Shown here: piece by piece, positions 27,235 through 60,078 of the stretch
Layout of the letters: each line of letters opens with the position of its first letter
How positions within the stretch are numbered: the stretch's first letter is position 1
Virus record (IMG/VR): IMGVR_UViG_3300033233_000009
Coordinates: 1-64,000 of that record
Direction: 5' to 3' (one strand)
Length of the DNA stretch: 64,000 bases
Source of the DNA: a virus
Notes under the pieces: generated by a model
What the model was told of the DNA's origin: nothing
Seen by the model: only the letters and a program-made list of their open reading frames with translations
The model's database searches: none
Translations under genes and position numbers: made by a program

Positions 27235-27990
27235 ATGCCCTACGCCTCTCCCAAAGACCCCCGCCGCGTCGTCTCTCAGCATCGCTACAACACGAGCGAG
27301 AAGGGGCGCAAGGCCATGCTCGCGTGGCGCAACGCCCACCGCGGGCGACTTGCTCAGTATTACAGCACCGACAAAGCGAAGGAGTGGATGCGGACCTCGC
27401 GTCAACGGATGCAGGCGGACCCGGAGCGGAAGCGCAAGAACGCCGAGGCGCAGCGTCGGTACAACCAGAGCGAGAAGGGTCGTCTCGCTTTCAAGCGAAG
27501 GGAGGCGAGCAACCGAGTGAAGTTGGGGCTCGGGCCGCCACGGCAGAAGCTCAGTCCAGAGGAGAAGAAGCAACGCCGTAAGGAATCACTGTTACGCTAC
27601 CGCGAATCCGGCAAAGCCAAGGTGTGTCAGGATCGTTTCTACGCAACCGAGTACGGTAAGCAGGCCAGCCTGGTTCGCGTCGAGCGGCGCCGATGCCTGC
27701 TGATGAGCGTTGGCGGTACGTTCACGTCCGACGAGTGGCGCGCGATGCTCCGGGCCTTCGGTTATCGCTGCACCTACTGCGGATGCGGAGGCAAGATGAC
27801 GATCGACCACGTTGTTCCGATCAGCAGCAACGGGCGTCACGAGCGTGCGAACATCGTGCCCTCCTGCCTGCGCTGCAACATCAAGAAACACAAGCACGAC
27901 CTGGCAGTAGCCTGCGCCAGACTGACGATCGATCTGCCTGCCTTTAACCAGCGGCGCGCCGCTGGCCTCGCGCGACTGGATGCCGCATGA
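27235..27990 (+). CDS. HNH (homing-type) endonuclease
   Basis: Basic helical repeats, then CTYCG...TIDHVVP.....H...NIVPSCLRCNIKK. Confidence 0.88.
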   Translation: MPYASPKDPRRVVSQHRYNTSEKGRKAMLAWRNAHRGRLAQYYSTDKAKEWMRTSRQRMQADPERKRKNAEAQRRYNQSEKGRLAFKRREASNRVKLGLGPPRQKLSPEEKKQRRKESLLRYRESGKAKVCQDRFYATEYGKQASLVRVERRRCLLMSVGGTFTSDEWRAMLRAFGYRCTYCGCGGKMTIDHVVPISSNGRHERANIVPSCLRCNIKKHKHDLAVACARLTIDLPAFNQRRAAGLARLDAA

Positions 27991-28532
27991 GCGCAACGCT
28001 ACCATTCCCTTCAGCCGCGCCGCCGCCGTTCACCGTCGGCCGGTTCTTCGGTCCACAAACCACGATCGACAAGATGCGGGAGCTGTGTCTCGGCGCGCGG
28101 GGTGAGCGGTCGATCGTGCTCTACCAGCTCACCGAGCACGTGGTGCGCTGGCTGCAACCCAAGGACTACCTCTCCGAGATTCTCGCGGTCCGCAACTTCG
28201 TCGCCGAGAAGGTCCGCTACAAGAACGACCCGCTCGCGATGGAGACGATCTCCGACCCGCAGCGGCTCGCGGAGCAGATTCTCCAGTACGGCCAGGCGAC
28301 AGCCGACTGTGACGACATCGCGCTTTTGGTCGCCACGATGGCGCGGCAGCTCGGGCGCGAAGCGGAGTTCGTCACCGTAGGCTTCGGCGCGCCCAACAAC
28401 TTCAGCCACGTGTTCGCGCGCGTGAAGGAGCCGAAGTCCGCCCGCTGGCTAGTGACCGACAGCGTTGCGGGGACAAGAGAAGCCGCGATGCTCGCGCGTG
28501 TCACGACCTGGAAGTCTTGGAAAATCGACTGA
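27987..28532 (+). CDS. Transglutaminase-like cysteine protease (candidate virion maturation enzyme)
   Basis: Cys-His-Asp triad: ADCDDIALL, FSHVFARV, WLVTD; also VRYKNDP...E. Confidence 0.8.
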   Translation: MSATLPFPSAAPPPFTVGRFFGPQTTIDKMRELCLGARGERSIVLYQLTEHVVRWLQPKDYLSEILAVRNFVAEKVRYKNDPLAMETISDPQRLAEQILQYGQATADCDDIALLVATMARQLGREAEFVTVGFGAPNNFSHVFARVKEPKSARWLVTDSVAGTREAAMLARVTTWKSWKID

Positions 28533-28560
28533 GACCGCAACCGCGAGGAACCCCATCACC

Positions 28561-29310
28561 ATGAGCTACGTCGCTTCCCTCGGACAGGATTACGATCGCC
28601 GCCCCCCGAGCGATCCGAAGCAGTACTCCGCCTGCGCGACCAAGGCGCAGCACGACGCGGCGCACGCGGCCTGCAAGCCGTACGAGCTGCGCGGGCTCGG
28701 GCTGCTCGACCTCGCCACGGCGAATCCGTGCTGGGTCGAGACGCTTCCGATCTGTCCGCCGCCCGTGCTGCACGCCGCGCCGATGCCCACGCGCCCCACC
28801 GTGGACTGGGCGGCGCTCGCCAAGTACGCCGCCGCGGTGAAGGCCGCGAACGACAAGCGGGCTTCCGACCTGCTCGCGTACGCGCAGGCGGTGCGCGACG
28901 TGAAGGCCCGTGCCGACCTCCTCGCCTACGTGGCCGCGGTGAAGGCCGCGAACGACAAGCGCGCCGCGGATCTGCGCGCGTACGCGGCGGCCGTCCAGGC
29001 GCGAGCCGCCCTGCCGCCCGCGGTGAAGGCCAAGACGCCTCCGCCCCCGCCGCCGCCCAAGACCCCGCCCCCGCCCGCGAAGCCCCCGGCGCTGACCAAG
29101 CCCCCGCCGGGTGCGCCCCCGCCCCCGAAGCAGACGCCGCCGCCCGCGCCGCCCCCGGGAGCACCCCCGGAAGTGGTCGCGCCTTCCGAGGAGGACGAGC
29201 CGGCGCCCGTCGCCCAGGCGGGCTTCGGCACGGGCGGGCTGCTTGCCGCCGCGGCGGTGCTCGCCGTCGGTGGGTGGCTGATCTTCGGCCGAAAGAAGAA
29301 GGCCGCGTGA
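28561..29310 (+). CDS. Tail-anchored membrane protein with Ala-rich repeats and a Pro-rich stalk
   Basis: GLG; PPVLHAA..DWAALAKYAAAVKAANDKR repeats; TM followed by RKKKAA. Confidence 0.8.
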   Translation: MSYVASLGQDYDRRPPSDPKQYSACATKAQHDAAHAACKPYELRGLGLLDLATANPCWVETLPICPPPVLHAAPMPTRPTVDWAALAKYAAAVKAANDKRASDLLAYAQAVRDVKARADLLAYVAAVKAANDKRAADLRAYAAAVQARAALPPAVKAKTPPPPPPPKTPPPPAKPPALTKPPPGAPPPPKQTPPPAPPPGAPPEVVAPSEEDEPAPVAQAGFGTGGLLAAAAVLAVGGWLIFGRKKKAA

Positions 29311-29362
29311 GGCTCCCTGCACGAAAGTCGCAGCGTTCCGCGAAGCAAGGTAGGTTCCAGCC

Positions 29363-30130
29363 ATGAGCAGGTATCCCACGTACCCCAGCCAGCCGTTTAC
29401 TGGGGCGCCGCCGTCGATGTGGTCGGACGTGAACCGGGCGAGCGACACGCGCTACTCGTCCAGCACGGCGCCCTACTACCAGGCGCTCATCGACAAGGCG
29501 CATGGCCGCCACCTGGCTGGCACCGACGACGAGGTGCAGGACGAGAAGCAGGAGTCGGGCTACGCGCTCAACGAGCTGCGGCTCATGGCCGAGATGGACG
29601 ACGTGCAGAACAACGGGGTGTTCGACAACCCCGAGGCGACGCCGCCGAACATCCACAGCGACGCGGGCGTGTTCTCGGTGCGCTTCAGCCTGCCGGGCTA
29701 CCTCGCCCGGGAGCGCATGTTCCACCCGAGCGAGGTGCGCGACGTGACCACGGGGCGCCCCATCGTGGTCGTGCCGAACAGCCCGATCGCGTACGACACG
29801 AGCGCGCAGGTCGCATTCATCGAGCGCGGGCTGAACCAGCCGTTCGGCCCGGTGGTGCAGCAGACCTCGCGCGGCGACATGCCGTACCAGTCGATCGTGA
29901 ACGTCATCCAGAACCCCGAGCCGATCAAGACGGGGCCCCCGGCGTCGGGCTTCGGGCTCGACCTCACCTCGGTGCTGCCGATGGTGACGGACGGGAAGAA
30001 GGCGGCGCTGCTCGCAGGTGGCGCGGCGGTGGTCGCCGGTGCGCTCTGGTACTTCCTGAAGGGACCGGGTAGCCGCAAGACGATGGTGAGCAACCGCAGT
30101 CACCGCGGGACGTCGCGGAGGAAGCGCTGA
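29363..30130 (+). CDS. Tail-anchored putative virion protein
   Basis: GFG, C-terminal TM, then the basic tail MVSNRSHRGTSRRKR; TAGGTT 6 nt before the ATG. Confidence 0.8.
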   Translation: MSRYPTYPSQPFTGAPPSMWSDVNRASDTRYSSSTAPYYQALIDKAHGRHLAGTDDEVQDEKQESGYALNELRLMAEMDDVQNNGVFDNPEATPPNIHSDAGVFSVRFSLPGYLARERMFHPSEVRDVTTGRPIVVVPNSPIAYDTSAQVAFIERGLNQPFGPVVQQTSRGDMPYQSIVNVIQNPEPIKTGPPASGFGLDLTSVLPMVTDGKKAALLAGGAAVVAGALWYFLKGPGSRKTMVSNRSHRGTSRRKR

Positions 30131-30132
30131 AC

Positions 30133-30669
30133 ATGACGAACGGACTCGGCGAATACTTCGGACCGCAGATGCAGCAGGCCGCTGCTGGCTCGCCCGCGCT
30201 CGACCCGTATCCGACGCGCACTTCCGTCCGGCAGCGGCCCGAGGCGCTGCCACCGACGAACGGGACCGGCGAGTACTTCGCGCAGAACGGCATGGGCGCG
30301 TTCGGCCCCGGCGTGATGGGAGGCATGGGCGCCTACAACATGGGCCCTGTCGGGCCGCGGCCGCGTGGCGCGTTCCGCAAGGTCGCGAGCAAGGTGTCGC
30401 CGCTCGCGGGCGCGCTCGGGGACGCTTCCGACGTGATCAGCGACGCGAAGGCGGGCGTCGTGACCGGCGTGGCCGCTGCCACGACGCTGACGGCGCTGCT
30501 GCTCGGGATGGGACTCCGGTTCGGTGCGGGCTGGATCGTCGGCAAGGCGCTCGCGCCGAGCCGTGCCGAGGAGCGCGCCTACACCTGGGGCGGCGCCATC
30601 GCGAGCGTGGTCTTCGGAAGCGTGGGGCTCGGCGTCGAGGCACTCGTCGCCCAGAACATGAAGAAGTGA
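30133..30669 (+). CDS. Membrane protein with GEYF/GLG motifs
   Basis: MTNGLGEYF, NGTGEYFAQNGMGA; C-terminal hydrophobic segments. Confidence 0.8.
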   Translation: MTNGLGEYFGPQMQQAAAGSPALDPYPTRTSVRQRPEALPPTNGTGEYFAQNGMGAFGPGVMGGMGAYNMGPVGPRPRGAFRKVASKVSPLAGALGDASDVISDAKAGVVTGVAAATTLTALLLGMGLRFGAGWIVGKALAPSRAEERAYTWGGAIASVVFGSVGLGVEALVAQNMKK

Positions 30670-30675: not shown

Positions 30676-33600
30676 ATGCGTCTCGGTCCGCTCTCCTACC
30701 AGTCGGCGTTCGATCTGCTCAGGGCGAAGGGCTACCAGCCCGTGCCCGGTAGCTCGCGCTTCGAGGACGCCGCGGGGCGCACCGGCCGCATCGTCGAGGC
30801 CGAGGGCCGTGGCGACACGTGGTACGCCGAGGCGGAGGAGGGCGACGCGGACCTGGCGCGCGTGGGCCAGCCCTGCCCGGAGTGCGGCACGGCGATGATC
30901 GACTACGGCGCGCACGGGACGACGTGCCCCCGGTGCGCGGAGGCGGAGGAGCGCGTGCTCGCGGGCGAGTTCGACCCGGCGGTCGTGCCGGGGTACGAGG
31001 AGAACGCCGGAGGGACGTTCGCCGAGGGCTTCGCAGCGGGCCGGCGGGACCGCGAAGCGAGTCACGTCCGGCAGCTTTGCACGACGGGCACGGGCGAGCG
31101 GCCGCCCGTCGTGAAGCGCCAGGGCCGCGACTACTACCACGGGTACAAGGCAGCGGCCGAGGGCGCCACGAGCGAGCCGTCGGCCTACCTCGCGTACCGC
31201 GCGAAGCACAGAGGGATGAGCGGCATGGCGGCGAACGGACAGCCGGGCGACGAGTACGAGTCGAACGCGCGGCGCGGCGCCCAGGCCAGTAAACCTGGGC
31301 GTCACGGCACGCTGTATCTCTGGAGAGTCACCTATCGCGACACCATTGACCCCGGCTTCGGCGAAAGCTCGGTTCTCAAATGGGCGTACGACAAGCAGCA
31401 CGTGTGGGACGTGTTCAACGAACAGGTCAACGCAGAAGGCGAGTCGTGGGAGATCGTCAAGATCGATCCTGCCGCTGCGAAGGAGTACGAGGCGAACGCC
31501 TCGCGCCGCGATCCGGTCGAGACTCTGACCGACCCGGAAGCCGTGAAGGCTGTCCTGCGGAGCCTGCGCGTCAAAAGCGGCCTGACAAGCACCAGTGCGT
31601 CGCTCGGCGGAAAGTGGTCTATCCGGTTCGGGTACAACCGGGACCACTCGCAGTTCACGACGACGCTGACGCACTTCGGAGCAAGCAAGTCCATGACCGT
31701 CGGGCTGCTGCCGGAGGACGTGGAGACGCGCAGCAAAGGCCAGTGGATGACGAGCAATACCTACAGGTTGACGGAGCCGGCGATCGAACGGCTGGCCGAG
31801 CAACTGGTCCCCGCGATGCGGAACTTCGACGCGAAGTACGCGGCGGGCATGGCGGCGAACCCGGAGCGCGGGACGACCATCACAGCGGCAGAGGTCAGCG
31901 CTCTGCCGGTCGGATCGATCCTGTGGGCGGACCATCGAGGCTGGGTCGTGGTGCCCGGCGGAATCGCACCGATCAGCCTCCTCACTGAACGGGCAGGTGG
32001 GCGGGTGCCGGACGGTGAACCGGCTGGAACCATCAGCCCGAACTTCGAGGTGGTGCGCGAGGGCAACGGTAAGGTGCCGACCTACGGCACGGCGCAGCGG
32101 CACGTGATCGCCTGGTACCAGGGCCGGCGTGCGACCCCGAACCCCGTGCACCTCGCGCTCGATGGCAACTTCTCGTTCGGAATCGGAACGAAGGACGACA
32201 CGCACATGAAGAAGAACGCGGCAGCCAAGGGCGAAGTGATCTGGGAGGACAACCTGCTGACGTGGACCTCCGCCGGAGTGGACAAGCTCGGCAATCCGCG
32301 CGGTCTCAACATGACCGCGACCCCCGAGGGCCGCGTGCTCGCGCAGGACATGCTGGCGGAGCGCCAGACCGGACGCCGCCGCGGTATCCTCGCCGAGCAG
32401 GCGGACTTCTTCGACGTCGCCATGGGCAACGGCTGGCAGTACGTCCCGCCGGAGGGCATCGGTGCGCTGACCGACGCGACCATCGTCAGCATGGACGGCT
32501 TCATCGGCGACGACGGCAAGTGGTACCCGCATCCCGACGTGGAGGAGCCCGTCGTGTACGCCCACATGAACTACGAGGTCGAGGACCCGATCGAGTCGTG
32601 GGCGGAGGGCAAGCCGGTGTTCTGGCAGGCCGAGACGATCGAAATGACACCGGAGGGCCGGGCCGCTGCCCTGGAGGAGCTGGCGAGCGCCACGGGGGAG
32701 GCGTACGAGCCGAACGCGCGCAAGAACGTGACCGCGGTGATCAACGCCTTCATGGAAGGGCGCCGCCTCGGCGGGACGACCGTCAGCACGGACGGGCAGC
32801 AGATTTTCTCCTACGCGATGCCGATCGCGGGCTGGGGTGCGGGCGGCGTGGTCGTGCTGGACGCGAAGGCCGCGCCGAGCCGAACGACCGCGAGCCACAT
32901 TCGCGCGGTCCAGTCAGCGATGCCGGAGGCGCGCGTCGTGGCGGCGCTCGATCCGCCCGCCGAAGGGCATTCTGCCGGGCGAAGGCCCCTCGGCTGGGAG
33001 CCGATGCGGGCGAACGCTGCAATCGACGCTGACAAGATCAAGGCCGCGCTCAGGATGGTGCACCACGCCGAGCGTACGTCCACCAACCCTGGCGGAAAGG
33101 ACCGGGCCGTCGCCTATCGGCAGGCCGTGCGGGACTACGGGCTGAACGACGCGGAGGCCGACATCCTTGGGAACGCGCTGCATGTGTCCGCGCACGAGCG
33201 GAACGCGCGTGGCAGCAAGCCGTGGTTCGGACAGGACCAAGGCAACGTCGGGCACTGGGCCTACGCGATCAAGATCGACGGCATCGAGAACGACTTTCCG
33301 CTCAAGCCCCTGGGGCGCCAGGAGGAGTGGCCAGCGGTACGAGCCTTCCAGGCGTCCGCGCGTACCACGTGGATCAATGCCAAGCACGACCGCTCCGGCG
33401 GGATGAACAGCGTCAAGCGATTCGTCAAGTCGGAGCCACGTCCAGACCAGTTCTACGCGAAGTGGTCACCGGGCGATGACAGCTTCCAGATTTGGTACAC
33501 CGTCGGTGAGGCCGCAGAGAGTCACACCCCCAACTGGGGCCTGATGCTCGATCTGGGCGGTGTGGAACGCCGCCTCGGCGCCGACCATGTGGCCGCGGTG

Positions 33601-33759
33601 CTCGGGAGCGTCACGCCGCACGCGGTCGCGCTCGGTCTGGCGAACGACGCCCTGGACGCGAACGACGTGAAGCGGCACGAGGCGTACACGTCGCTCGCGC
33701 GCATGATCGACGACGGTGACCTCGACGACCTGATCGCGTCGGCGCGAGGGCGGGCCTGA
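30676..33759 (+). CDS. 1027-aa multidomain polyprotein-like protein punctuated by [YHM]xxN motifs
   Basis: About 11 recurrences (YEENA, MAANG, YESNA, YEANA, MAANP, ATPNP, MKKNA, YEPNA, MRANA, HERNA, HTPNW) separating dissimilar segments. Confidence 0.85.
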   Translation: MRLGPLSYQSAFDLLRAKGYQPVPGSSRFEDAAGRTGRIVEAEGRGDTWYAEAEEGDADLARVGQPCPECGTAMIDYGAHGTTCPRCAEAEERVLAGEFDPAVVPGYEENAGGTFAEGFAAGRRDREASHVRQLCTTGTGERPPVVKRQGRDYYHGYKAAAEGATSEPSAYLAYRAKHRGMSGMAANGQPGDEYESNARRGAQASKPGRHGTLYLWRVTYRDTIDPGFGESSVLKWAYDKQHVWDVFNEQVNAEGESWEIVKIDPAAAKEYEANASRRDPVETLTDPEAVKAVLRSLRVKSGLTSTSASLGGKWSIRFGYNRDHSQFTTTLTHFGASKSMTVGLLPEDVETRSKGQWMTSNTYRLTEPAIERLAEQLVPAMRNFDAKYAAGMAANPERGTTITAAEVSALPVGSILWADHRGWVVVPGGIAPISLLTERAGGRVPDGEPAGTISPNFEVVREGNGKVPTYGTAQRHVIAWYQGRRATPNPVHLALDGNFSFGIGTKDDTHMKKNAAAKGEVIWEDNLLTWTSAGVDKLGNPRGLNMTATPEGRVLAQDMLAERQTGRRRGILAEQADFFDVAMGNGWQYVPPEGIGALTDATIVSMDGFIGDDGKWYPHPDVEEPVVYAHMNYEVEDPIESWAEGKPVFWQAETIEMTPEGRAAALEELASATGEAYEPNARKNVTAVINAFMEGRRLGGTTVSTDGQQIFSYAMPIAGWGAGGVVVLDAKAAPSRTTASHIRAVQSAMPEARVVAALDPPAEGHSAGRRPLGWEPMRANAAIDADKIKAALRMVHHAERTSTNPGGKDRAVAYRQAVRDYGLNDAEADILGNALHVSAHERNARGSKPWFGQDQGNVGHWAYAIKIDGIENDFPLKPLGRQEEWPAVRAFQASARTTWINAKHDRSGGMNSVKRFVKSEPRPDQFYAKWSPGDDSFQIWYTVGEAAESHTPNWGLMLDLGGVERRLGADHVAAVLGSVTPHAVALGLANDALDANDVKRHEAYTSLARMIDDGDLDDLIASARGRA

Positions 33760-37339: not shown

Positions 37340-37343
37340 TCCC

Positions 37344-40341: not shown

Positions 40342-40345
40342 GCCG

Positions 40346-48938: not shown

Positions 48939-49009
48939 CGCTCCCGAGCGGGGGCAGGTCTGATGCGTACGGCGCGCTCCGCCGGTACTCCCTTGTGGAG
49001 GTAGCTACG

Positions 49010-50625: not shown

Positions 50626-50637
50626 GAGCACACCGAG

Positions 50638-53215: not shown

Positions 53216-53218
53216 GCG

Positions 53219-53449
53219 ATGCCGACCTTCATGGCGACGCCGACCGACGTGCTGAAGCTGGTGCACACCGCACGGAAGCTCGACGCGAATCCGTTTTCGC
53301 TCGCGGGCAAGCTCGTGGGGCTCGGCGCGGACGAGCAGCGGGCGGGCATCCCGGCGTGGGCCTGGGTGCTCGCGGGAGTGGGGGTCGGGGTGGCACTCGG
53401 CTGGAAGCTCGCGCCGACCGCGCGGGCGCGACTCAAGGCGTTCTCCTGA
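53219..53449 (+). CDS. Small membrane protein
   Basis: VGLGA; TM WAWVLAGVGVGVALGW. Confidence 0.7.
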   Translation: MPTFMATPTDVLKLVHTARKLDANPFSLAGKLVGLGADEQRAGIPAWAWVLAGVGVGVALGWKLAPTARARLKAFS

Positions 53450-53467
53450 ACCAAAGGACAAGTAACC

Positions 53468-53878
53468 ATGGCATTTGCACTCGCAGTCGGTGACCTCGTG
53501 TCCCCCCTCGCCGTCGCGGCCTTCGCGTCCAGCACCGAGCCGCCGCTCCTCGGCGTCGTCACGAAGATCAGCCCCACGACCGTGGTGTGGCAGGATGGGC
53601 GCGAGGTGACCTACACGCCCTCGACGGGCGCCTCGGTGGACGAGGGGCTGTCGAAATTCGAGCCGACCCTCGGCACACCCTTCCAGAACGCGAAGGTGCG
53701 GCCGAACGGGACGATTCCGTTCCCGAACCCTGCCGGTCGCGCGGAGGGCTTCGTGGTGCTCGTCGGCAACGTCACCAACGCCCTCGTGACGGCACTACCG
53801 ACGGCGATCATCCGCTTCGGCAACGGCCTCTACACGGCGGTGCCCGTCTCCGGCATCGAGGTGATCCCGGGCGCCTGA
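53468..53878 (+). CDS. Beta-rich hypothetical protein
   Basis: AAGGA RBS; 136 aa. Confidence 0.7.
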   Translation: MAFALAVGDLVSPLAVAAFASSTEPPLLGVVTKISPTTVVWQDGREVTYTPSTGASVDEGLSKFEPTLGTPFQNAKVRPNGTIPFPNPAGRAEGFVVLVGNVTNALVTALPTAIIRFGNGLYTAVPVSGIEVIPGA

Positions 53879-53900
53879 GAGGCCCGCCGCTCTCCCGATA

Positions 53901-53938
53901 CCGAAAACTTGACGGCGAGCCGGGCAGCCGGCGAGCAT
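53901..53938 (+). promoter_or_regulatory. Recurrent viral promoter
   Basis: CCGAAAAC-TTGACG-18-GAGCAT. Confidence 0.6.
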
Positions 53939-53955
53939 GAAGGAACAGGCAAACC

Positions 53956-54360
53956 ATGTCGCTCAATCAGATGGCGTACCAGTCCGGCGTGCTCGGGGCC
54001 CTGCCCCCGGCTCCCGCCTTCCGCTCGGGCTCGCTCGGCGTGCTCGGCTTCGTGCCGCCGGTGTCCGGTGCGGTGCGCTCGGGCTCGCTCGGCATCCTGG
54101 GGGCGCCCCCACCGAGCGGCGCCGTGAAGTCCGGCGTGCTCGGCACGCTCGGTGGCGGCCCGCCTCCCTCCGGTGCGGTGCGCTCCGGCTCGCTCGGTGT
54201 ACTCGGCGAGTACTTCGCGCAGAACGGCCTCGGTGCCGATGCGGTCGTGATGCCCACCGCGGTGGGGCCGAAGCCCGCCATGGCGACCCTCACCATGGCC
54301 ATCGCTGGCCTGGGCGCGGTCGCCGCGATCTGGTGGGCCATGACCCGCCGGCACGCCTGA
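53956..54360 (+). CDS. Tail-anchored repeat protein
   Basis: Repeated SG(S/V)LG.LG..PP.SGAV; GEYFAQNGLGA; TM. Confidence 0.75.
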   Translation: MSLNQMAYQSGVLGALPPAPAFRSGSLGVLGFVPPVSGAVRSGSLGILGAPPPSGAVKSGVLGTLGGGPPPSGAVRSGSLGVLGEYFAQNGLGADAVVMPTAVGPKPAMATLTMAIAGLGAVAAIWWAMTRRHA

Positions 54361-54456: not shown

Positions 54457-55077
54457 ATGGCGGACCTGCTCGAAACCCTCGGCCGCGTCGTCCTGACCTT
54501 CCAGTCCGCTCCGCAGGGCGTGCCGGGCAGGATCTGGGACGAGCTGCGTCCGTGGTTCGGGCGGCTCGTGGTGAGCGCGGCGCCGAAGTGGCTACCGCGC
54601 CTGTCGTTCGGCTTCGCGTGCTCGGTGCCGCATCCGAACGGCGCGGCCTGTCCGCGGCCCGCCATCGCGGCCTGCGATGTGTGCGGCCAGCCCTGCTGCC
54701 TCGACCACGCGCGCATCGACCAGTACGGCGACGCGATCTGCTACCTCTGCTGCATCGAGGCGATCCGGCGGAAGCAGGCCGAGCGCGCCGGGGAGCCAGC
54801 GCCGGGGCACGGTCACGCCCAGGGGGGCCATGCCGGGCACGGGCATGGGCCGCAGCCGACCCCTGAAAAGGAGCTGGCCTGGGCCCGCAAGACGCTCGGC
54901 GTGAAGAAGGGCGCGGACTGGGAAGAAGTGCGCGCGGCGCACCGTAGACTCTCCGCGAAGTGGCACCCCGATCGCCATCAGGGCGCGGGCTACCAGGCAG
55001 CCGAGGACCGGTTCAAGCAGGTACAGAGAGCGTTCGACTTGCTCACGAAGGAACGTGAGCGAAAGGAAGCGGCGTGA
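54457..55077 (+). CDS. J-domain (DnaJ-like) protein with a Cys-rich Zn module
   Basis: LGV....WEEVRAAHRRLSAKWHPDR...FKQVQRAFDLL; CDVCGQPCCLDH...CYLC. Confidence 0.85.
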   Translation: MADLLETLGRVVLTFQSAPQGVPGRIWDELRPWFGRLVVSAAPKWLPRLSFGFACSVPHPNGAACPRPAIAACDVCGQPCCLDHARIDQYGDAICYLCCIEAIRRKQAERAGEPAPGHGHAQGGHAGHGHGPQPTPEKELAWARKTLGVKKGADWEEVRAAHRRLSAKWHPDRHQGAGYQAAEDRFKQVQRAFDLLTKERERKEAA

Positions 55078-55798
55078 TGGCGAAGCGAGCAACCAAGGCG
55101 AAGCGGGCCCCCGCTGACTTCGACGACGAGGACGCGGTGCTCAAGGAAGTTGCGAAAGACCTCGGCGAGGACGCCGACGATCTGAAGATCAAGGAGGACG
55201 GTGGCCTCGGGAGTTTCGGCGAGGGCACGGTCTACCGGATCAGCACGCCACGCGGCGGCCGCGAGTGGTGCGTCGTGCAGGACCACGACACCGCCTACAA
55301 GCTGGCCGTCGCAGTGGTCACTCAGGATCTGGAGAGCGAGCCGGAAATCTTCAACAAGGACTTTCTCGAATCGCACATCGACAAGATGAAGCTCGCTCGC
55401 GAGCTGGAATCGGACCTGCGCAGCATGGCCGAAGACGACGTGCGCGAATGGACGCGGACGACTTCTGGCGCGAGGCGGGGCGCGAGGGCATGGAGGTGCC
55501 GGAAGCCGAGGTGGACGAGGACGGCAACGAGGAGGATCTGCGCGACCCGACCGAGAACGAGCTGAGCGAGCTGGCCGAGAAGCGCGTCGAGGACCAGCTA
55601 CGCGATCCGATGCAGTACCTCTCCGACATTTACGGCGACAAGGAAGCGGTCGAGCAGGCGATCAAGATCGCGGGCATCGACGTGGACGCTGCCGCCGAGG
55701 ACGCCGTGGACACCGACGGCTGGGAGCACTTCCTGTCGCGCTACGACGGGCACAGCCACGAGACGGCGAGCGGGTTCGTCTACTGGCGGGAGAACTGA
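55077..55798 (+). pseudogene. Acidic hypothetical protein with an apparent 1-nt deletion at about 55447
   Basis: The frame ending ...AEDDVRE joins the frame starting MDADDFW if one A is inserted (GAATG to GAAATG); C-terminus DGWEHFLSRYDG. Confidence 0.65.
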
Positions 55799-55801
55799 GC
55801 C

Positions 55802-56581
55802 ATGGCCGCCCAGAAGTGGACGCTGAAGTTCCGTGAGCTTGCCGAGGGTGCATCGCTCGTCGAGGCGAAGCCACCCAAGAGCCGCCGAACGCTGAAGGGC
55901 GGCGAGAGTCCGCGCTACGTCCAGGCGTACGTCCAGGCCACCGGGATGCAGGAGCGCGCCCAGAAGCTGATGAGCTACAGCGGCGACGACGTGCAGTACA
56001 TGGAGGCCGTGATCGAGGAGGAGCACATGGCGAACGCTAAAAGCAAGACGAGCGACAAGCTCAACACGGACCAGATCGCCAAGCTGTTCGACCTCGACAC
56101 GTACGAGGATCTGAACGAGCGGAACATCGACTACATCGCCGAGCAGGGCCACTACGCCTACAAGGCCGCGATCGAGGACGGCGCCTCGGAGGAGGAAGCC
56201 GACGAAGCGAACATGAAGGGCCAGGAGGAGGCCGACGGCGAGCTGTTCCGTCAGTGGCACGACGGCGTGATGGCGGCCGCCGAGGATCTGTTCGGGAAGC
56301 ACGGGCTCACGCTGGTGCCGGTGGGCAAGCAGGGCAGCGCCGCCTACCCCTACGAGTACAAGGTCGTGCCCGAGGAGTCGTGGGACAAGGCCGTCGTCGC
56401 GATCATCGAGACGATCAACGGCGTTGGCGACTACCACTTCAGCAGCGTCCGTGAGTTTCTGGACTCCGGGCCGTACACGGCACGCTCGGGCGTGCTGGAG
56501 CACCTGGGCTACATCGCGAGCTACCCCGAGGTCTACGGGGACACGAGCGCGCGGCGCATCTACGAAGGTCACTTCCGCTGA
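55802..56581 (+). CDS. Acidic hypothetical protein
   Basis: 259 aa with strong GC3 codon bias. Confidence 0.75.
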   Translation: MAAQKWTLKFRELAEGASLVEAKPPKSRRTLKGGESPRYVQAYVQATGMQERAQKLMSYSGDDVQYMEAVIEEEHMANAKSKTSDKLNTDQIAKLFDLDTYEDLNERNIDYIAEQGHYAYKAAIEDGASEEEADEANMKGQEEADGELFRQWHDGVMAAAEDLFGKHGLTLVPVGKQGSAAYPYEYKVVPEESWDKAVVAIIETINGVGDYHFSSVREFLDSGPYTARSGVLEHLGYIASYPEVYGDTSARRIYEGHFR

Positions 56582-56604: not shown

Positions 56605-57276
56605 ATGTCATACGATCGCGTGAACCCGACCTACTACCAGACGTTCCAGCAGGACACGCCCTTCCACGCCGGATCGGAGGGCTGGACGAGGTCGCCCTGG
56701 CCGACCTGGGGCGACAACCCGAACCTCGCGGGTCGGCGCACGCTCGCGACCGACGGGCTCGGTGGCTGCGGGTGCGCGGGAGCGTCCGGGCTCGGCACCG
56801 TCCTGGCAATCTCGGGGCTCGGCACCGTCGCGGTGACCAAGCCGGCGCCGTACTCCGCGCCCGCTCGGGCGACCATGGGCAACCCGGCGTCGGAGAACTG
56901 CGTCGCGAAGGGCGGCACGGTCCAGGTCGTCGAGACGCCAGCGGGGCAGAGCGGGATCTGCGTGTTGCCGAACGGCACCCGGTGCGAGGAGTGGGCGCTG
57001 TTCCGCGGCCAGTGCGGCCCGGCGGCGGCGAGCATGTTCCCTCCCATCCCCGAGCAGCCTGCCTGGAAGAAGGCGCTCAGCATGGCGGCGGGGGCCGCCT
57101 GCGCCTACCACGGCTTCAAGCGGAACGAGTCGGCAGGCTGGGCGGTCGCGTGGGCCGCGTTCGGCAGCACGATCCCCCTTCTGGCGCTCCCCATTGCGCT
57201 CGCGCAGGGCTTCGGGAAGCCGGCGCGGAAGCCCGCGATGGCAGCGAACAGGCGGCGCGGTCGCGCCCGGCGCTGA
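56605..57276 (+). CDS. DUF333-like domain membrane protein
   Basis: MGNPASENCVAKGG...GICVLPNGTRCEEWALFRG; GLG x3; tail MAANRRRGRARR. Confidence 0.8.
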   Translation: MSYDRVNPTYYQTFQQDTPFHAGSEGWTRSPWPTWGDNPNLAGRRTLATDGLGGCGCAGASGLGTVLAISGLGTVAVTKPAPYSAPARATMGNPASENCVAKGGTVQVVETPAGQSGICVLPNGTRCEEWALFRGQCGPAAASMFPPIPEQPAWKKALSMAAGAACAYHGFKRNESAGWAVAWAAFGSTIPLLALPIALAQGFGKPARKPAMAANRRRGRARR

Positions 57277-57282
57277 GCCCGA

Positions 57283-57320
57283 CCGGAAACTTGCCGGCCC
57301 CCGACCGGGGGGCGTAGCCT
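57283..57320 (+). promoter_or_regulatory. Recurrent viral promoter, leaderless
   Basis: CCGGAAAC-TTGCCG-18-TAGCCT, 6 nt to the ATG at 57327. Confidence 0.6.
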
Positions 57321-57326
57321 CGGGGC

Positions 57327-58490
57327 ATGGACTACTACCGCGTCGGCTACGCACAGTCCCCGCTCGTTCCCATGGGGATGGGCTCCTCGCCCGACGGCCT
57401 CGGCGCGTACTTCCAGACGACGTACCAGCAGCCGATCCGCGCGGTGCACGGCGGCACGAGCACGGTGGCGGCCTACCAGCCGATCGATGGGCTCGGCGCG
57501 TACTTCGCGACGACGTACCAGCAGCCGATCCGTCCGGCGCAAGGCGGCGCGAGCATCATCGCGGACTACAAGCCGATCGACGGGCTCGGGGAGCTGACGC
57601 CCGCCCAGCGCAGCGCAGTCGCCTGGGCCTCGCTCCTCGGCTTCGTCGGGTGGGGCAGCGGGCTCCTGGCGCGGGGCCCCGTCTACGCCCGCAAGCGCGG
57701 CCCGTGGGTACCGCTGGCCGGCGCGGCGGCCGGCGTGGCGGTGGGCTACGCGATCGGCACGCGGCGGGCTACCGCCCCGCCTGCGCCCACGGCTGGCCTT
57801 GGCGCGTGCCTCCCGTGCATGGCAGCGGCCGCGGGCCTCGGTGCGGATGCGGTGCCGGCGGCGACGCCCTCCGCACTCAGCAAGCCATGGGTCAAGGTCG
57901 CGCTCGGTGTCGGCGCCGTCACGCTCGCCTGGTACACCGTGCCGGCGTTCCGCAAGCTGTGGGGTCCCGGTGGCGCGCTCGCGAAGAACAAGCGGCACCG
58001 GCGGAACGCGCACACGGGCGGACCCGACGATCACGTTTACGCGCCAAGCGGGATGCGTGGCTGGGATGCCTGCGCGAGGTGCGGTTACGCCCGCGGACAG
58101 CACCTCACTGCTGCCGAGCTAAAGCGACTCCGCTCGCTCACGCCGAACCGCCGCCGCAGGCACCGGAAGAACGCGAAGTGGTCGGGCAAGGCGAAGCGGA
58201 GCCTGCCGGACACCAGCTTCCTCTACGTTGCGCCCGGCGGCCACGCGCGCATCGAGGGCGGCAAGAAGGTCACCATCCCGCGGAGCCTGCGGAAGTTCCC
58301 GTACCGCACGGCGGCGGGCAACATCGACCTGCCGCACCTGCGGAACGCCATCGCGCGCATCCCGCAGTCGAACCTGCCGGAGAGCCAGCGCACGCTGCTC
58401 CAGGCGAAGGCCCGCGCCATCCTCGCCGAGCACGGCGGGTACAAGCGCGCGCGCAAGGCGGCGGGCGGCGTGCTCCGACAGGCGGCGTGA
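57327..58490 (+). CDS. 3-TM protein with DGLGAYF repeats and a basic C-terminal domain
   Basis: DGLG x3; TMs; HRRN/HRKN motifs; the segment LPDTSF...RKFPY...IDLPHLRNAIARI is recalled from phage head-associated small domains. Confidence 0.8.
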   Translation: MDYYRVGYAQSPLVPMGMGSSPDGLGAYFQTTYQQPIRAVHGGTSTVAAYQPIDGLGAYFATTYQQPIRPAQGGASIIADYKPIDGLGELTPAQRSAVAWASLLGFVGWGSGLLARGPVYARKRGPWVPLAGAAAGVAVGYAIGTRRATAPPAPTAGLGACLPCMAAAAGLGADAVPAATPSALSKPWVKVALGVGAVTLAWYTVPAFRKLWGPGGALAKNKRHRRNAHTGGPDDHVYAPSGMRGWDACARCGYARGQHLTAAELKRLRSLTPNRRRRHRKNAKWSGKAKRSLPDTSFLYVAPGGHARIEGGKKVTIPRSLRKFPYRTAAGNIDLPHLRNAIARIPQSNLPESQRTLLQAKARAILAEHGGYKRARKAAGGVLRQAA

Positions 58491-58552
58491 TGGCCAGGAG
58501 ACGCCCGAAGCCCGAGAGGCCCGACTCGGATCAAACGCTGGCCAAGGCGTAA

Positions 58553-59359
58553 GTGTCCTACGCCGCCGCCCTGCCGCTCGCCCGCTCCCAGCGCCGCCCG
58601 CTCGGGGCTGGCGCAGGCGTAGGCGAGTTCTACCTCCGGCAGTGGCCGATCATGGTGGCGCCGCGGGTGCGGGCGTACCGGCTCGCGCGCGCGATGGCCG
58701 GCTCGCTCGGAGCGACGGTACTGGGCGGCACACGGATCCCCGACAAGCTGACGCCGCTGACGCCGGAGCAGGCCGCGCAGGCGCTGGCGACGGCGTACCA
58801 GCGCGTGACGGGCAAGGTGGCCGACCAGCGGGTGCTCGGGCTCCTGATCGGGCAGACCGCGCTCGAAACCGGCAACTGGAAGTCGCTGCACAACTACGGG
58901 TTCGGAAACGTCAAGGCCACGGCGAGCGACCCGTACTACGCCGGCTTCCGGTGCTGGGAAGTGGTGAACGGCGAGAAGGTCTGGTACGAAGCCGACCACC
59001 CGGCGTGTCAGTTCGCGGCGCACCTCACCGCGGCCGACGGCGCGGAGCACTATGTACGAATCCTTCAGCGCCGTCCCCACTGGTGGGCGGGCCTGGAGTC
59101 GCGCACGGTACCAGGGTTCGTCGCGGGGCTCACGACGCGCCCCGCCTACTTCACGGCCGACCCGGGCACGTACGAGCGGGTGCTCTCCGAGCGGATGGGG
59201 CAGTACGCCGACCAGGCCGTGAAGTACGCCGGGCAGGCGGTGGAGTTCGCGGGCAAGCACAAGGTCGCGGTGGGAGGCACGGTCGTGGGCGTGTTCGCCC
59301 TCACGTTCGGATCCTGGTATCTCTACAACGCGATGACCAGCAAGCGGAAGGCGGCCTGA
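58553..59359 (+). CDS. Glucosaminidase/FlgJ-like muramidase with a C-terminal TM
   Basis: GQTALETGNW..LHNYGFGNVK, F..H.T..DGA..Y, YFTADP.TY. Confidence 0.75.
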   Translation: MSYAAALPLARSQRRPLGAGAGVGEFYLRQWPIMVAPRVRAYRLARAMAGSLGATVLGGTRIPDKLTPLTPEQAAQALATAYQRVTGKVADQRVLGLLIGQTALETGNWKSLHNYGFGNVKATASDPYYAGFRCWEVVNGEKVWYEADHPACQFAAHLTAADGAEHYVRILQRRPHWWAGLESRTVPGFVAGLTTRPAYFTADPGTYERVLSERMGQYADQAVKYAGQAVEFAGKHKVAVGGTVVGVFALTFGSWYLYNAMTSKRKAA

Positions 59360-59484
59360 CCATGGCCAAGGCATTGAGTAAGGCGGCACGCGAGGTCGCG
59401 GCCGAGACACTCTGGACGAGGCAATCAAAATGCTGGCGCGTGCGCGAGGCGCTATGATGCACGCTCGCAGGAGACTGCGCTGAC

Positions 59485-60078
59485 GTGAAGCTCGACCCGA
59501 CCATCATCCTGCTCGGTGTCGGTGGCGCGCTCGTCGGCTACGGCGTCTACCACGCACTCGCGAAGCGCGGCACCGTGCCGGCGCCGCCGTGGGTCCAGCC
59601 GGATGGGAAGCCGGAAGTGACCGGGCCACCGCCGCCTGGCCTGCTGAAGTCCGAGCCGCTGATCCAGCAACTGCTCCCGAGCCTCCAGCCGATGGCGCGC
59701 GAGACGCTCCAGCGCGCGTTCAACATCGGCATCCCGCTCGTGGTGACGCAGGGCTACCGCAGCCCGGCGACGCAGGCGGCGCTCTACGCGCAGGGACGCA
59801 CCGCGCCGGGCGCGGTCGTGACCAACGCGCCGCCGGGGTGGTCGTGGCACGAGTACCGGCGCGCGTTCGACGTGGCCGTGCTGGACGCCCGCGGGAACCC
59901 GACCTGGCCAAACGACGTGGCGCTGTGGAGCCGCATCGGGCAGTGCGGGAAGGAGGCCGGCCTGGAGTGGGGAGGGGACTGGACGGGCATCATCGACCGG
60001 CCGCACTTCCAGCACACGGGCGGGATGACCATGGCGCAGGCCCGCGCGGGGCAGAGCCCCGCGTCGCTGGTGGCGTGA
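59485..60078 (+). CDS. M15-family L-Ala-D-Glu peptidase (CwlK-like endolysin) with an N-terminal TM
   Basis: QGYRS..Q..LYAQGRT.PG.VVTNA..G.SWH.Y..AFD, EWGGDW, DRPHFQ. Confidence 0.9.
   Translation: MKLDPTIILLGVGGALVGYGVYHALAKRGTVPAPPWVQPDGKPEVTGPPPPGLLKSEPLIQQLLPSLQPMARETLQRAFNIGIPLVVTQGYRSPATQAALYAQGRTAPGAVVTNAPPGWSWHEYRRAFDVAVLDARGNPTWPNDVALWSRIGQCGKEAGLEWGGDWTGIIDRPHFQHTGGMTMAQARAGQSPASLVA

Follow-up and report, generated by a model that had tools for sequence, protein, structure and literature searches.

A conserved gene block that may encode the virion of tailless, membrane-containing bacterial viruses

We propose that a conserved block of genes, found in large uncultivated genomes, serves as the virion module in a new lineage of bacterial viruses that are tailless and contain a membrane. 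It would work more like Sulfolobus polyhedral virus 1 (SPV1) than PRD1 or P23-77. We put the chances of this reading at about even. The window analysed is 64,000 nucleotides long (positions 1 to 64,000 of IMG/VR virus record IMGVR_UViG_3300033233_000009). The whole record, G000, is 124.6 kb and 69% complete; family searches identified YqaJ, RecT, DnaB, ThyX, DUF3310, an integrase and a Dam methylase. Gene content, conservation, synteny, the absence of tailed-phage hallmarks and the fold class of two models are direct observations. A preliminary description had suggested a lineage of lipid-containing jelly-roll viruses. The virus-type record, absent hallmarks, synteny and jelly-roll-like models agree with this; the fold evidence is moderate, and the membrane and particles are read from the genes.

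Extent and conservation of the block

Plus-strand genes are densely packed from 27,987 to past 62.7 kb (GC3 frame plot and ORF calls). A synteny search of IMG/VR, suggested earlier as a check, found the block, with its gene order kept, in 16 large relatives (contigs of 63-179 kb). Eight of these 16 are at least 90% complete, and six of the 16 loci have terminal repeats. The repeats, of 33-132 bp, indicate circular assembly, and complete genomes of the lineage assemble as circles of 111-179 kb. MAG bins supplied 10 more contigs with relatives. The block genes matched nothing in 50,697 phage records or 72,556 plasmid records. Among the phage, plasmid, IMG/VR and MAG data searched, only uncultivated sequences carry them. 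Note that defence and accessory cargo is plentiful in G000 and its relatives (RM enzymes, a Cas12-like gene, MoxR-VWA pairs and glycosyltransferases).

The boundaries first given, 27,987 and 60,078, were too narrow, since the conserved syntenic block extends at both ends. Its upstream end is at 16,837-20,845, separated from the rest by an insertion in G000. Downstream, it includes 60,156-60,755 and two glycosyltransferases past the window end. The conserved genes at the two ends are:

16837-17475, plus strand: 212-aa conserved protein, function not assigned
17996-20845, plus strand: 949-aa conserved protein
60156-60755, plus strand: 199-aa conserved Cys-cluster protein, just past 60,078

All three belong to the core, defined by BLAST clustering as 23 clusters common to four complete genomes. 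The core also includes two glycosyltransferases and an FkbM methyltransferase; its sole P-loop protein is DnaB. The 212-aa and 199-aa proteins have no Pfam family. The gene for the former marks the upstream start of the block, and adjoins it in relatives G007 and G012. In the 949-aa protein (21 homologues, all unnamed; no family in Pfam or PHROGs), an N-terminal domain is accompanied by a long charged coiled coil and by a region rich in P/Q. A role as scaffold or tape-measure-like protein is possible.

Membrane, peptidoglycan-binding and lytic proteins

Tail-anchored proteins were screened for by requiring a single hydrophobic 19-mer, at a distance of over 30 residues from the N-terminus and at most 45 from the C-terminus, followed by a net-positive tail. 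This strict screen selected 14 of the 35 called genes in 27,987-60,078, compared with 3 of 142 in the rest of the 124.6-kb record (Fisher p = 5e-9). One of the 14, a 78-aa minus-strand ORF at 45419-45655, is doubtful. Three more proteins (42167, of 807 aa, 56605 and 58553) fit by eye and fail the strict screen. Hence, the total is about 13-17. More than 15 proteins with a single C-terminal transmembrane segment, a basic tail and no signal peptide had been reported; the class is real and the number roughly right. The same ending, a helix and K/R tail, is present in orthologues from G001, G007, G009 and G012. The membrane and wall-associated proteins are:

28561-30669, plus strand: three membrane proteins (28561, 29417, 30133)
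36410-40003, plus strand: three tail-anchored proteins
40024-41585, plus strand: four small membrane proteins (40024, 40346, 40627, 41142)
42167-45217, plus strand: 807-aa helical coiled-coil protein, then 197-aa tail-anchored protein
49987-51381, plus strand: two tail-anchored proteins with one PG_binding_1 domain each
52448-54360, plus strand: four small proteins (52448, 53219, 53498, 53956), three being tail-anchored membrane proteins
56605-58490, plus strand: DUF333-domain membrane protein with an Arg-rich tail, and 387-aa multi-helix protein
58553-59359, plus strand: 268-aa protein with a hydrophobic C-terminus and KRK tail
59485-60078, plus strand: M15/VanY-type peptidoglycan peptidase

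Two products of the first group are tail-anchored, with basic tails; the other has two helices and a GLGEYF motif. The 29417, 37344 and 52448 products are core proteins. Helix prediction and the screen identified the 36410-40003 and 40024-41585 groups. N-terminal parts of the former contain repeated peptidoglycan-binding-like modules and Pro/Thr-rich linkers. Homologues of the 41142 product occur in 12 of 15 flanking loci, and of the 53219 product in 13 of 15. The 53498 product has a helix above the prediction threshold, yet fails the screen. The 807-aa protein ends in a membrane helix and basic tail. No Pfam or PHROGs family and no phage-collection match was obtained, and BLAST clustering gave no core cluster. 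Using tblastn, weak partial homologues were found in G007, G009 and G012 (24-31% identity), with 58% identity in G001. The DUF333 match is strong (PF03891, E 1.8e-22), and the 387-aa protein has GLGAYF motifs and a basic C-terminal part.

Several peptidoglycan-binding proteins had been described, and we find four. PF01471 matches the 49987-50625 and 50638-51381 products (E 1.6e-10 and 8e-11), both with C-terminal helices, and PF09374 matches the 39044-40003 product (25.5 bits, above cut-off). The fourth, encoded by 37344-39047, scores 20.4 bits with PF01471, below the cut-off of 23 bits. It is hard to see what such domains would do on the cytoplasmic side, where tail-anchored proteins would place them, unless their action is confined to the following infection. 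Two membrane-anchored murein hydrolases had also been claimed, of which one stands. The 59485-60078 product matches M15 peptidases (PF13539, E 7e-12; PF02557, E 1.6e-6) and has an N-terminal signal-anchor helix (residues 7-25). Its sequence would suit a lytic enzyme that is endolysin-like or one associated with the virion. Conversely, for the 58553-59359 product, searches of Pfam, PHROGs and PDB sequences gave no hydrolase family. Relative G001 has an endolysin-type gene (Amidase_2 and PG_binding_1).

Candidate shell and DNA-condensing proteins

The centre of the block encodes its most conserved proteins. These, and the remaining genes of the block, are:

45861-47891, plus strand: basic domain protein, core
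48110-48868, plus strand: 252-aa protein, the lineage's most conserved
48995-49972, plus strand: 325-aa protein, second shell candidate
51397-52275, plus strand: 292-aa conserved soluble protein, core
27987-28532, plus strand: transglutaminase-core (papain-like Cys) protein, core
30676-35405, plus strand: 1027-aa multi-segment soluble protein, and ComM/Mg-chelatase-type AAA+ protein
41582-42163, plus strand: 193-aa conserved soluble protein, function not assigned, core
54457-55077, plus strand: Cys-rich protein with a C-terminal DnaJ (J) domain, core
55074-56581, plus strand: acidic soluble proteins

The 48110 product has 655 homologues, all unnamed, and is found in 15 of 15 loci and G001 at 50-93% identity. 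Compared with G001, G007, G009 and G012, its identity is 93, 72, 56 and 55%, the highest of any protein in the genome; values for DnaB are 76, 44, 50 and 35%. The 48995 product has 569 homologues (77 representatives at 50% identity). Identity of the shell candidates among the four complete genomes is 42-72%. The basic protein is always directly upstream, and the order 45861, 48110, 48995 is kept in all four complete relatives, most of the 15 flanking loci and two MAG contigs, one of 37% GC. The 48110 and 48995 genes are side by side even at 25-33% identity.

AF2 models of both proteins are jelly-roll-like beta-sandwiches. For 48110 (pLDDT 63.1, pTM 0.65), the best structural neighbours are TasA (Z 6.6), the Omono River virus protrusion (6.4), SPV1 (6.1) and the FLiP capsid (6.0-6.1); SPV1 is also ranked first by Foldseek (E 0.025). 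The 48995 model (pLDDT 64.8) has two N-terminal helices, then the sandwich (residues 80-325). Its VIA neighbours are capsid proteins of PBCV-1 (Z 8.4), EhV-201 (7.9), SGIV (7.8) and SPV1 (7.7) then, lower, HCIV-1 (7.5), PRD1 P3 (7.1), SH1 (6.6) and P23-77 VP17 (5.9). By our count, virion proteins fill 22 and 21 of the top 50 VIA rows for the two models, and include SPV1, HCIV-1, SH1, P23-77, PRD1 P3, FLiP, STIV and PBCV-1. The best neighbours are mostly capsid proteins from membrane-containing icosahedral viruses, all at Z of 8.4 or below. Note that the structure tool gives 7-8 as the typical best Z for unrelated models, and that both models have long loops at pLDDT below 50. The fold evidence is therefore moderate. 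Similar scores are obtained for non-viral jelly-rolls (TasA, 6.6; peptidylglycine monooxygenase, 6.5; TNF-family ligands, 5.5-5.7), and carbohydrate-binding modules align at Z about 5.2. Foldseek against the PDB gave no match at E of 0.001 or below for either model, and sequence searches of the two proteins against solved capsid proteins detected no relation. PM2 P2_N and PRD1 P3_N profiles each matched 0 of 17 records. Comparison of structures had been proposed as the check on the jelly-roll claim; the outcome favours that fold class, at pLDDT 63-65.

The 48110 product is our candidate major shell protein. The 51397 product (31-45% identity in 15 of 15 loci, 72% in G001) is a candidate vertex or minor shell protein. 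It has no detectable sequence relation to the 48110 or 48995 products, and Atlas gave weak leads only (0.75-0.76). In Atlas, the nearest named clusters for both 48110 and 51397 contain the P2_N/P2_C families, with P3 as well in the case of 48110 (scores of only 0.75-0.77, to be read as leads). All three ORFs previously called beta-rich and soluble are present; beta-sandwich models cover 48110 and 48995.

The description of 45861-47891 as encoding a basic core-like protein was accurate. A protamine-like domain of about 370 aa is followed by two or three membrane helices and a Gly-rich tail with three GLGEYF copies. The N-terminal half is 32% K+R and 2% D+E; in 13 homologues it is 36-46% K+R, and the basic domain is kept in 14 of 14 members. 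We consider this a candidate membrane-tethered DNA-condensing protein.

Among the other genes, 27987-28532 (PF01841, E 1.3e-7; 54-69% identity across four relatives) may encode a maturation protease. The J-domain protein (PF00226, E 8e-14; 15 of 15 loci) may recruit host Hsp70 for assembly. The 193-aa protein is in 13 of 15 loci and has no family in Pfam or PHROGs. The 30676-35405 pair (PF01078, E 8e-50, and PF13541) has homologues in G001 and none in G007, G009 or G012, and so is sublineage-specific and outside the core. Conservation of the acidic proteins ends at G001.

Might these proteins build something other than a shell? If the virion were pleomorphic and enveloped, or were an infectious membrane vesicle (a 'plasmid-vesicle'), and had no icosahedral shell, the basic protein would coat DNA, host-derived membrane would be studded with tail-anchored proteins, and the jelly-roll-like proteins would be spikes, matrix or fusion parts. 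The very large membrane proteome, the conserved membrane-tethered basic protein, the lack of packaging ATPase, portal and terminase, and the likeness of the 48110 model to TNF-like and PRD1 P5 spike heads (Z 5.5-5.7) all fit. However, among virion proteins the receptor-binding spikes usually vary most, whereas 48110 and 48995 are the lineage's most conserved genes. Furthermore, the closest neighbours of 48995 come from the shells of icosahedral viruses that contain a membrane, and known pleomorphic prokaryotic viruses have genomes far smaller than 111-179 kb. We consider this alternative fairly unlikely.

Packaging genes, known systems and proposed working

No tailed-phage hallmarks were found in the window, the whole record or relatives. 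HK97 capsid, terminase, portal and FtsK ATPase profiles gave nothing above cut-off in 17 records. Specifically, PF05065, PF03354 and PF04860 each matched 0 of 17 records, with positive controls working, and PF03237 matched 0 of 2. PHROGs gave no structural family for the 20 proteins searched, and neither 48110 nor 48995, the two most conserved proteins, models as an HK97 fold. The preliminary description, which had reported no hallmark genes, named HK97 or tailed-phage genes as evidence against itself; none surfaced in 17 records. Nor was an FtsK-HerA packaging ATPase found in the 17 records, and none is conserved in the four complete genomes. We detected no known type of packaging ATPase, which would be unusual if this large dsDNA virus is icosahedral. 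Of all Walker-A ORFs listed for G000, those assigned to families are DnaB, a DnaC-like protein and a ComM-like protein; the others are 121795-122946 (no Pfam family) and two in doubtful frames.

These absences, with the circular assembly (terminal overlaps of 33-132 bp), might indicate a non-viral megaplasmid or integrative element. The block would then encode a cell-envelope structure of host or element, and no particle would form. Examples would be a surface layer, a complex for adhesion or wall remodelling, and a transfer apparatus of a new kind. The many peptidoglycan-binding domains, whose known substrate is outside the cytoplasm, and the abundant defence and accessory cargo are consistent with this, and the IMG/VR virus label was assigned automatically. 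We consider it unlikely. No VirB4, VirD4, FtsK-type or relaxase-like P-loop protein is among the Walker-A ORFs, and plasmid records gave no match. The block proteins have no signal peptides, so could not reach the wall by the usual route, and an envelope role for the conserved protamine-like domain (32-46% K+R) is not obvious. Phage-type recombination, nucleotide-metabolism and lysis genes are also present.

Finally, large phages often have divergent structural genes and most proteins here are dark (including three large non-core proteins of G000, of about 300-400 aa without a Pfam family, and several more in G001), but a large tailed phage with head and tail genes past profile detection, and the block as an envelope, lysis or superinfection module, is very unlikely: among phage genes, that for the terminase large subunit is normally conserved best, yet DnaB is the only P-loop protein common to the four complete genomes, in which shell candidates are still 42-72% identical; four hallmark profiles are empty (three in 17 records, one in 2); neither most conserved protein models as HK97; and where G001 has sequence that G000 lacks, the genes are those for glycosyltransferases, an SNF2 helicase, an amidase and a Cas12-like protein, with no head-tail module.

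For a tailless, membrane-containing virus, the obvious comparisons are PRD1 and P23-77, most relatives of which have an FtsK-HerA packaging ATPase. Since none was found in 17 records, and SPV1 has none assigned, the comparison made earlier with PRD1- and P23-77-like viruses is weakened and SPV1 fits better. PRD1 and PM2 types (Tectiviridae, Corticoviridae) are tailless, with an internal membrane, virion wall-degrading enzymes and a jelly-roll shell, as the genes here suggest, and PRD1 P3 aligns with 48995 (Z 7.1) and 48110 (5.3). Unlike them, proteins here are sized for single rather than double jelly-rolls and lack P3_N and P2_N matches (0 of 17). Their genomes are about ten times smaller. 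Genomes of Helvetiavirae (P23-77, SH1, HCIV-1, Simuloviridae) are likewise several times smaller than here, and sequence similarity is absent. Two papers (PMC12642351, PMC8328091) describe Helvetiavirae-type viruses as having two adjacent single-jelly-roll capsid genes and an internal membrane, and the Simuloviridae abstract gives genomes of 16-19 kb. The 48110/48995 pair resembles this arrangement (Z of 7.5 for HCIV-1, 6.6 for SH1 and 5.9 for P23-77 VP17).

SPV1 (Portogloboviridae) has shell proteins VP4 and VP10, each a single jelly-roll, and an array of subcapsomer and membrane proteins that covers an internal lipid layer. Its nucleoprotein core is made with VP1, and a basic nucleocapsid protein condenses the genome (PMC8459092). 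Nine ORFs have assigned functions (seven DNA-binding, one glycosyltransferase, one methyltransferase), a packaging ATPase is not among them, and mini-CRISPR arrays are carried (PMC8459092). The parallels here, read from genes and models, are a putative jelly-roll shell, a putative membrane and a candidate basic nucleoprotein, with two glycosyltransferases and the FkbM methyltransferase in the core. SPV1 chains are among the best structural neighbours of both models (Z 7.7 over 137 residues for 48995; 6.1 over 134 for 48110). There are differences. Sequence similarity is absent, and the SPV1 genome is about 20 kb, compared with 111-179 kb. Here, the basic protein has 600-840 aa and a membrane anchor, and the membrane proteome is much larger. 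Lytic enzymes are present here, whereas SPV1 is reported to be non-lytic. Peptidoglycan implies a bacterial host, while that of SPV1 is a hyperthermophilic archaeon.

From the genes, we infer a shell, membrane and particles, and the topology, condensation and cleavage that go with them. The 48110 and 48995 proteins would build the outer shell, with possible contributions from the 51397 product and a fourth conserved protein, present only in complete relatives and beta-rich by eye. A lipid membrane beneath would hold about 15 tail-anchored proteins. Their large N-terminal parts would remain cytoplasmic, the future shell side, with short K/R tails toward the DNA. With no conserved packaging ATPase to pump DNA, the genome would be condensed by the protamine-like, membrane-tethered 45861 protein. 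The transglutaminase-fold Cys enzyme and J-domain protein may help maturation and assembly, and the peptidoglycan-binding proteins and M15 peptidase may breach the wall at entry or exit. If this reading, to which we give even chances, is correct, the lineage would comprise uncultivated, widespread large dsDNA viruses of peptidoglycan-bearing bacteria.

Composition of the candidate virion module

The preliminary description credited a block at 27,987-60,078 with more than 15 proteins ending in a single transmembrane helix and a basic tail. A protein passed our screen for such tail anchors if its one hydrophobic 19-mer lay >30 residues from the N-terminus and <=45 from the C-terminus and the tail carried a net positive charge. 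The block contained 14 among 35 genes, compared with 3 among 142 genes outside (Fisher p = 5e-9). Among the 14 is one minus-strand ORF that is doubtful as a gene, and three further proteins fit by eye, giving a count of 13-17. The enrichment stands, with a range replacing the original figure. Orthologues in four other genomes keep the helix and the K/R tail (for example, tails ending KKKK, VKK or KRKR). Because the same ending recurs there, the tail anchor is, as judged from sequence, a conserved trait rather than chance. From these 13-17 proteins, we infer that the particle would contain an internal lipid membrane.

Other assignments in the block fared variably. Where several peptidoglycan-binding proteins had been described, two are solid (PF01471), a third is over the cut-off and a fourth is under it. 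One of two supposed membrane-anchored murein hydrolases is an M15 peptidase with an N-terminal helix; the other, 58553, had no match. The basic, core-like protein is borne out, since the N-terminal half of 45861 is 32% K+R. For most other block proteins, neither Pfam nor PHROGs gave a family. The conserved block also extends wider than 27,987-60,078. In two related genomes (G007 and G012) the homologue of 17996 adjoins a transglutaminase gene; in the window, small genes and an insertion lie between the two.

In the block proteins we counted 54 copies of the tripeptide G[LMF]G, a fourfold enrichment over 300 shuffles (mean 13.7, maximum 24). Outside the block, 24 copies were observed versus 22.1 expected. 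A longer form, GLGEYF or GLGAYF, is present in three block proteins and in homologues from G001, G007 and G009.

Genome setting, shared core and relatives

The 64-kb window has a GC content of ~70%. In a GC3 frame plot, coding from 4.4 kb onward is nearly all on the plus strand, except in a low-GC island at 22.3-26.1 kb. The full record, G000, of which the window is the first 64 kb, is a single linear contig of 124,597 bp, catalogued in IMG/VR as a virus, with a CheckV completeness of 69% and 177 genes placed by a GC3-based caller. A search of sequencing runs gave one DNA run, from a sediment metagenome and possibly the source, and no RNA run. Profile scans identified YqaJ, RecT, a helicase, a DnaC-like loader and DnaB 5' of the block. 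Located 3' of the window are ThyX, a DUF3310 protein, glycosyltransferases, methyltransferases, an integrase, a Dam methylase, a Cas12-like protein and a MoxR/VWA-type pair with an intein. A tRNA scan of the window and four loci found no genes, and promoters and terminators at 44-62 kb were no more numerous than in shuffles. Individual features are as follows.

Features of G000
11717-12064 and 12215-13135: DnaB gene, split by an in-frame TAG at 12062-12064; a single ORF of 495-539 aa in relatives
22300-26100, minus strand: low-GC island (59-62% versus ~70%) that breaks up the conserved block, carrying an 806-aa N6-methylase-type RM protein and an IS1595-family transposase
30676-35405: 1027-aa multi-segment protein and a ComM/Mg-chelatase-like ATPase, in G000 and G001 only, both non-core
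48902-48938: perfect 16-bp G+C-rich hairpin, with no T-run, directly 3' of the stop codon of the most conserved gene, 48110-48868; the 136-nt spacer has a folding energy of -67.2 kcal/mol, with a z-score of just -2.0
63169-65226: 685-aa Cas12-like protein with a weak Cas12f1-like_TNB match, below the cut-off (E 1e-4); G001 homologue at ~146.4-148.5 kb, 27% identity
118508-121033, minus strand: DUF2201 metallopeptidase/VWA-like protein with an intein that has a LAGLIDADG domain inside; the G001 homologue (529 aa) is without the intein

A nonsense mutation, an error of sequencing or readthrough could explain the TAG in the DnaB gene; TAG is the stop of just 27 of the 177 called genes. The segment at 30676-35405 is a recent insertion into the block, outside the conserved core.

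To define that core we compared four complete genomes (G001, G007, G009 and G012), which share 23 clusters.

Core of the four complete genomes
DnaB; products of 16837 and 17996; transglutaminase-fold protein
Products of 29417, 37344, 41582, 45861, 48110, 48995, 51397 and 52448
J-domain protein; product of 60156
Two glycosyltransferases; FkbM methyltransferase; phosphatase; SGNH-like protein; one small cluster
Four genes located in the part missing from G000

Of these core proteins, the transglutaminase-fold Cys enzyme shows 54-69% identity in the four relatives. The 807-aa protein 42167 falls in no core cluster; weak, partial homologues occur in each of the four genomes. Against G001, G007, G009 and G012, respectively, 48110 is 93, 72, 56 and 55% identical; the values for DnaB are 76, 44, 50 and 35%. 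Three adjacent core genes, at 137.1-139.7 kb of G001, are outside the G000 contig. They encode a metalloprotease-like protein with an HEFGH motif, a Cys-cluster protein and a ~300-aa protein that is beta-rich by eye and could be a fourth shell component.

The IMG/VR search proposed earlier did recover relatives, at 16 loci on contigs of 63-179 kb. Eight IMG/VR records are at least 90% complete and six have terminal repeats, of 33-132 bp, the pattern produced by circular assembly. Of the relatives, G001 (179,401 bp) lies closest and is colinear with G000. The ~31 kb of G001 absent from G000 encodes glycosyltransferases, an SNF2 helicase, an amidase and a Cas12-like protein, and has no head-tail module. 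Within G001, the region at 120-135 kb is glycosyltransferase-rich (GT2 with TPR, and galactosyl- and glucosyl-transferase PHROGs) and its GC3 bias is below that of the rest of the genome. The ends of the G000 contig coincide with both borders of this region.

Among 5.8 billion proteins, clustered at 90% identity, 48995 has 569 homologues (E <=0.001), all unnamed except for one hypothetical protein from a Gemmatimonadales MAG; a library clustered at 50% identity holds 77 representatives. For 48110 there are 655 homologues (clusters at 90% identity). The N-domain of the 949-aa protein 17996 has 21, none of them named. Ten more contigs with relatives, of 37% to 70% GC, are in MAG bins labelled Pirellulales (2), Planctomycetota, Phycisphaeraceae, Gemmatimonadota, Pseudomonadota, Pseudomonadales, Deltaproteobacteria, Acidobacteriota and Methanomicrobiales archaeon. 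The labels span at least eight phyla, one archaeal (Methanomicrobiales), and the contig of 37% GC keeps the order basic protein, 48110, 48995, 51397. This spread reflects either a very broad host range or wrong binning. Since bin labels of whole-element contigs are unreliable, we name no host. No description of the lineage was found in a literature represented mostly by abstracts; contig lists in supplements could hold relatives.

Shell candidates and hallmark genes

The two most conserved proteins, 48110 and 48995, are the shell candidates. AlphaFold2 models, made with family alignments, predict a beta-sandwich with two N-terminal helices for 48995 (pLDDT 64.8, pTM 0.51) and a beta-sandwich for 48110 (pLDDT 63.1, pTM 0.65). 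Neither model has the HK97 fold. Foldseek found nothing in the PDB at E <=0.001 for either; the weak top rows are nearly all jelly-roll capsid proteins (TYMV, HPV L1, IBDV VP2, poliovirus, SPV1 and PBCV-1). Nine BFVD matches at E <=0.001, most of them unnamed and with TM <=0.32, are uninformative. Note that the VIA-align Z scores, none above 8.4, all fall within the stated background of the method, where non-viral jelly-rolls score alike: for 48995, PBCV-1 8.4, EhV-201 7.9, SGIV 7.8, SPV1 7.7, HCIV-1 7.5, PRD1 P3 7.1, VACV D13 7.1, STIV 6.9, SH1 6.6 and P23-77 VP17 5.9; for 48110, TasA 6.6, Omono River virus 6.4, SPV1 6.1, FLiP 6.0-6.1, PRD1 P5 5.6 and PRD1 P3 5.3. The 7.7 and 6.1 obtained against the SPV1 shell proteins VP4/VP10 are likewise inside this range. 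The ESM Atlas gave weak leads to PM2 P2 and PRD1 P3 clusters (0.75-0.77), and profile searches of PDB sequences returned no capsid protein. In profile-profile comparison, the three beta-rich families (48110, 48995 and 51397) are unrelated to each other (probability <=0.25%). A predicted complex of 48995 with 48110 (score 0.00, mark 0.32) is evidence neither way.

The models, at pLDDT 63-65, support a jelly-roll-like beta-sandwich as the fold class, in line with the preliminary description. The capsid role that it also assigned is, with Z at most 8.4 against Varidnaviria capsid proteins, a step further: we infer it because 48110 is extremely conserved, the pair is always adjacent and the context fits. 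A pleomorphic or vesicle-type particle, for which the tail-anchored proteins would be retained and the two beta-sandwich proteins would form no shell, is unlikely, and is the strongest of the alternatives. A non-viral envelope module on a megaplasmid is somewhat less probable still. In the plasmid collection PLSDB, tblastn with 48110 found no match. Equally, tblastn with 48110, 48995 and 42167 found none among GenBank phages. A conjugative element was rejected, with no transfer ATPase in the Walker-A listing of G000 or in family scans of its large proteins, where neither a VirB4/VirD4-type ATPase nor a relaxase was seen. The Walker-A ORFs of G000 with a family are DnaB, DnaC-like and ComM-like; one further ORF has no Pfam family.

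Six profiles were run on 17 records (G000 and its 16 relatives), with control genomes responding. HK97 major capsid (PF05065, Phage_capsid), terminase (PF03354, TerL_ATPase), portal (PF04860, Phage_portal), PM2 P2_N and PRD1 P3_N each exceeded the cut-off in 0 of 17. The packaging ATPase profile (PF01580, FtsK_SpoIIIE) also gave 0 of 17, with two weak P-loop matches, one of them inside DnaB. PF03237 (Terminase_6N) was found in 0 of 2 records. Pfam and PHROGs identified no structural family among 120 protein queries from G000, G001, G007, G009 and G012, a few of them scanned twice or in both. DnaB is the only P-loop protein common to the four complete genomes; across Walker-A listings of five genomes it is again alone in common, and DnaC-like, ComM, MoxR, AAA and AAA_28 proteins differ by genome. 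Within these profiles and scans, the reported lack of tailed-phage hallmark genes is confirmed. A divergent tailed phage is very improbable, because a recognizable terminase should still be common at such divergence and none was found. An excerpt of PMC8328091 describes an FtsK-HerA superfamily packaging ATPase as common to most PRD1- and P23-77-like Varidnaviria, whereas PF01580 had no match over the cut-off here.

A proposed particle and its significance

We propose a particle that would comprise a shell, a membrane and a nucleoprotein core, because the combination of genes matches the SPV1 design. On genes alone, the likeness extends to at least two jelly-roll shell candidates, many tail-anchored proteins and no packaging motor. 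In addition, the conserved, membrane-tethered, protamine-like protein 45861 is encoded directly 5' of the shell-candidate genes. In SPV1, VP4 and VP10 are the shell proteins, subcapsomer and membrane proteins are present too, and VP1 provides the nucleoprotein core; the virus also encodes one glycosyltransferase and one methyltransferase and carries CRISPR arrays (PMC8459092). Portogloboviridae have circular genomes of ~20 kb and infect hyperthermophilic archaea, whereas the present genomes are 111-179 kb and carry bacterial peptidoglycan-binding and M15 domains.

Since the block membrane proteins are without signal peptides, their N-terminal parts would stay on the cytoplasmic face. In PRD1, the membrane pinches inward. 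If that happens here, the cytoplasmic face would end up toward the shell and the short K/R tails toward the DNA. G[LMF]G may be a processing or docking signal, given that the transglutaminase-fold Cys enzyme is core and the tripeptide is enriched fourfold. What sits least comfortably with the proposed particle is that proteins lacking export signals carry peptidoglycan-binding domains.

A bolder reading, which we rate as less likely than not, is that these elements form a bacterial virus lineage that is new, of high rank and perhaps not part of any established realm. These would be the first tailless, membrane-containing viruses of bacteria with large genomes (111-179 kb), with two or more single-jelly-roll shell proteins unrelated in sequence to known capsids. 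The genome would condense on a membrane-tethered, protamine-like protein, with no motor. The lineage would occupy many habitats and possibly many host phyla, at GC contents of 37% to 70%. The proteins, genome size and bacterial host of the lineage are new; its architecture, if real, would follow a kind already known.

The large bacterial viruses known to us are nearly all tailed. Those bacterial and archaeal viruses that we can name as tailless and membrane-containing all have small genomes, to our knowledge of ~44 kb at most; the papers drawn on here give ~16-20 kb. Were a widespread lineage of 111-179 kb elements to have none of the known families of capsid, portal, terminase or packaging ATPase, tailless viruses of prokaryotes would span a size range several-fold larger. 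The plan of shell, membrane and nucleoprotein core, shown to date by one archaeal family, would gain an equivalent in bacteria, and the classification of viruses by marker genes would prove to have a blind spot. Both 48995 (569 clusters at 90% identity) and 48110 (655) can serve at once as markers in the search for hosts and for samples suited to isolation.
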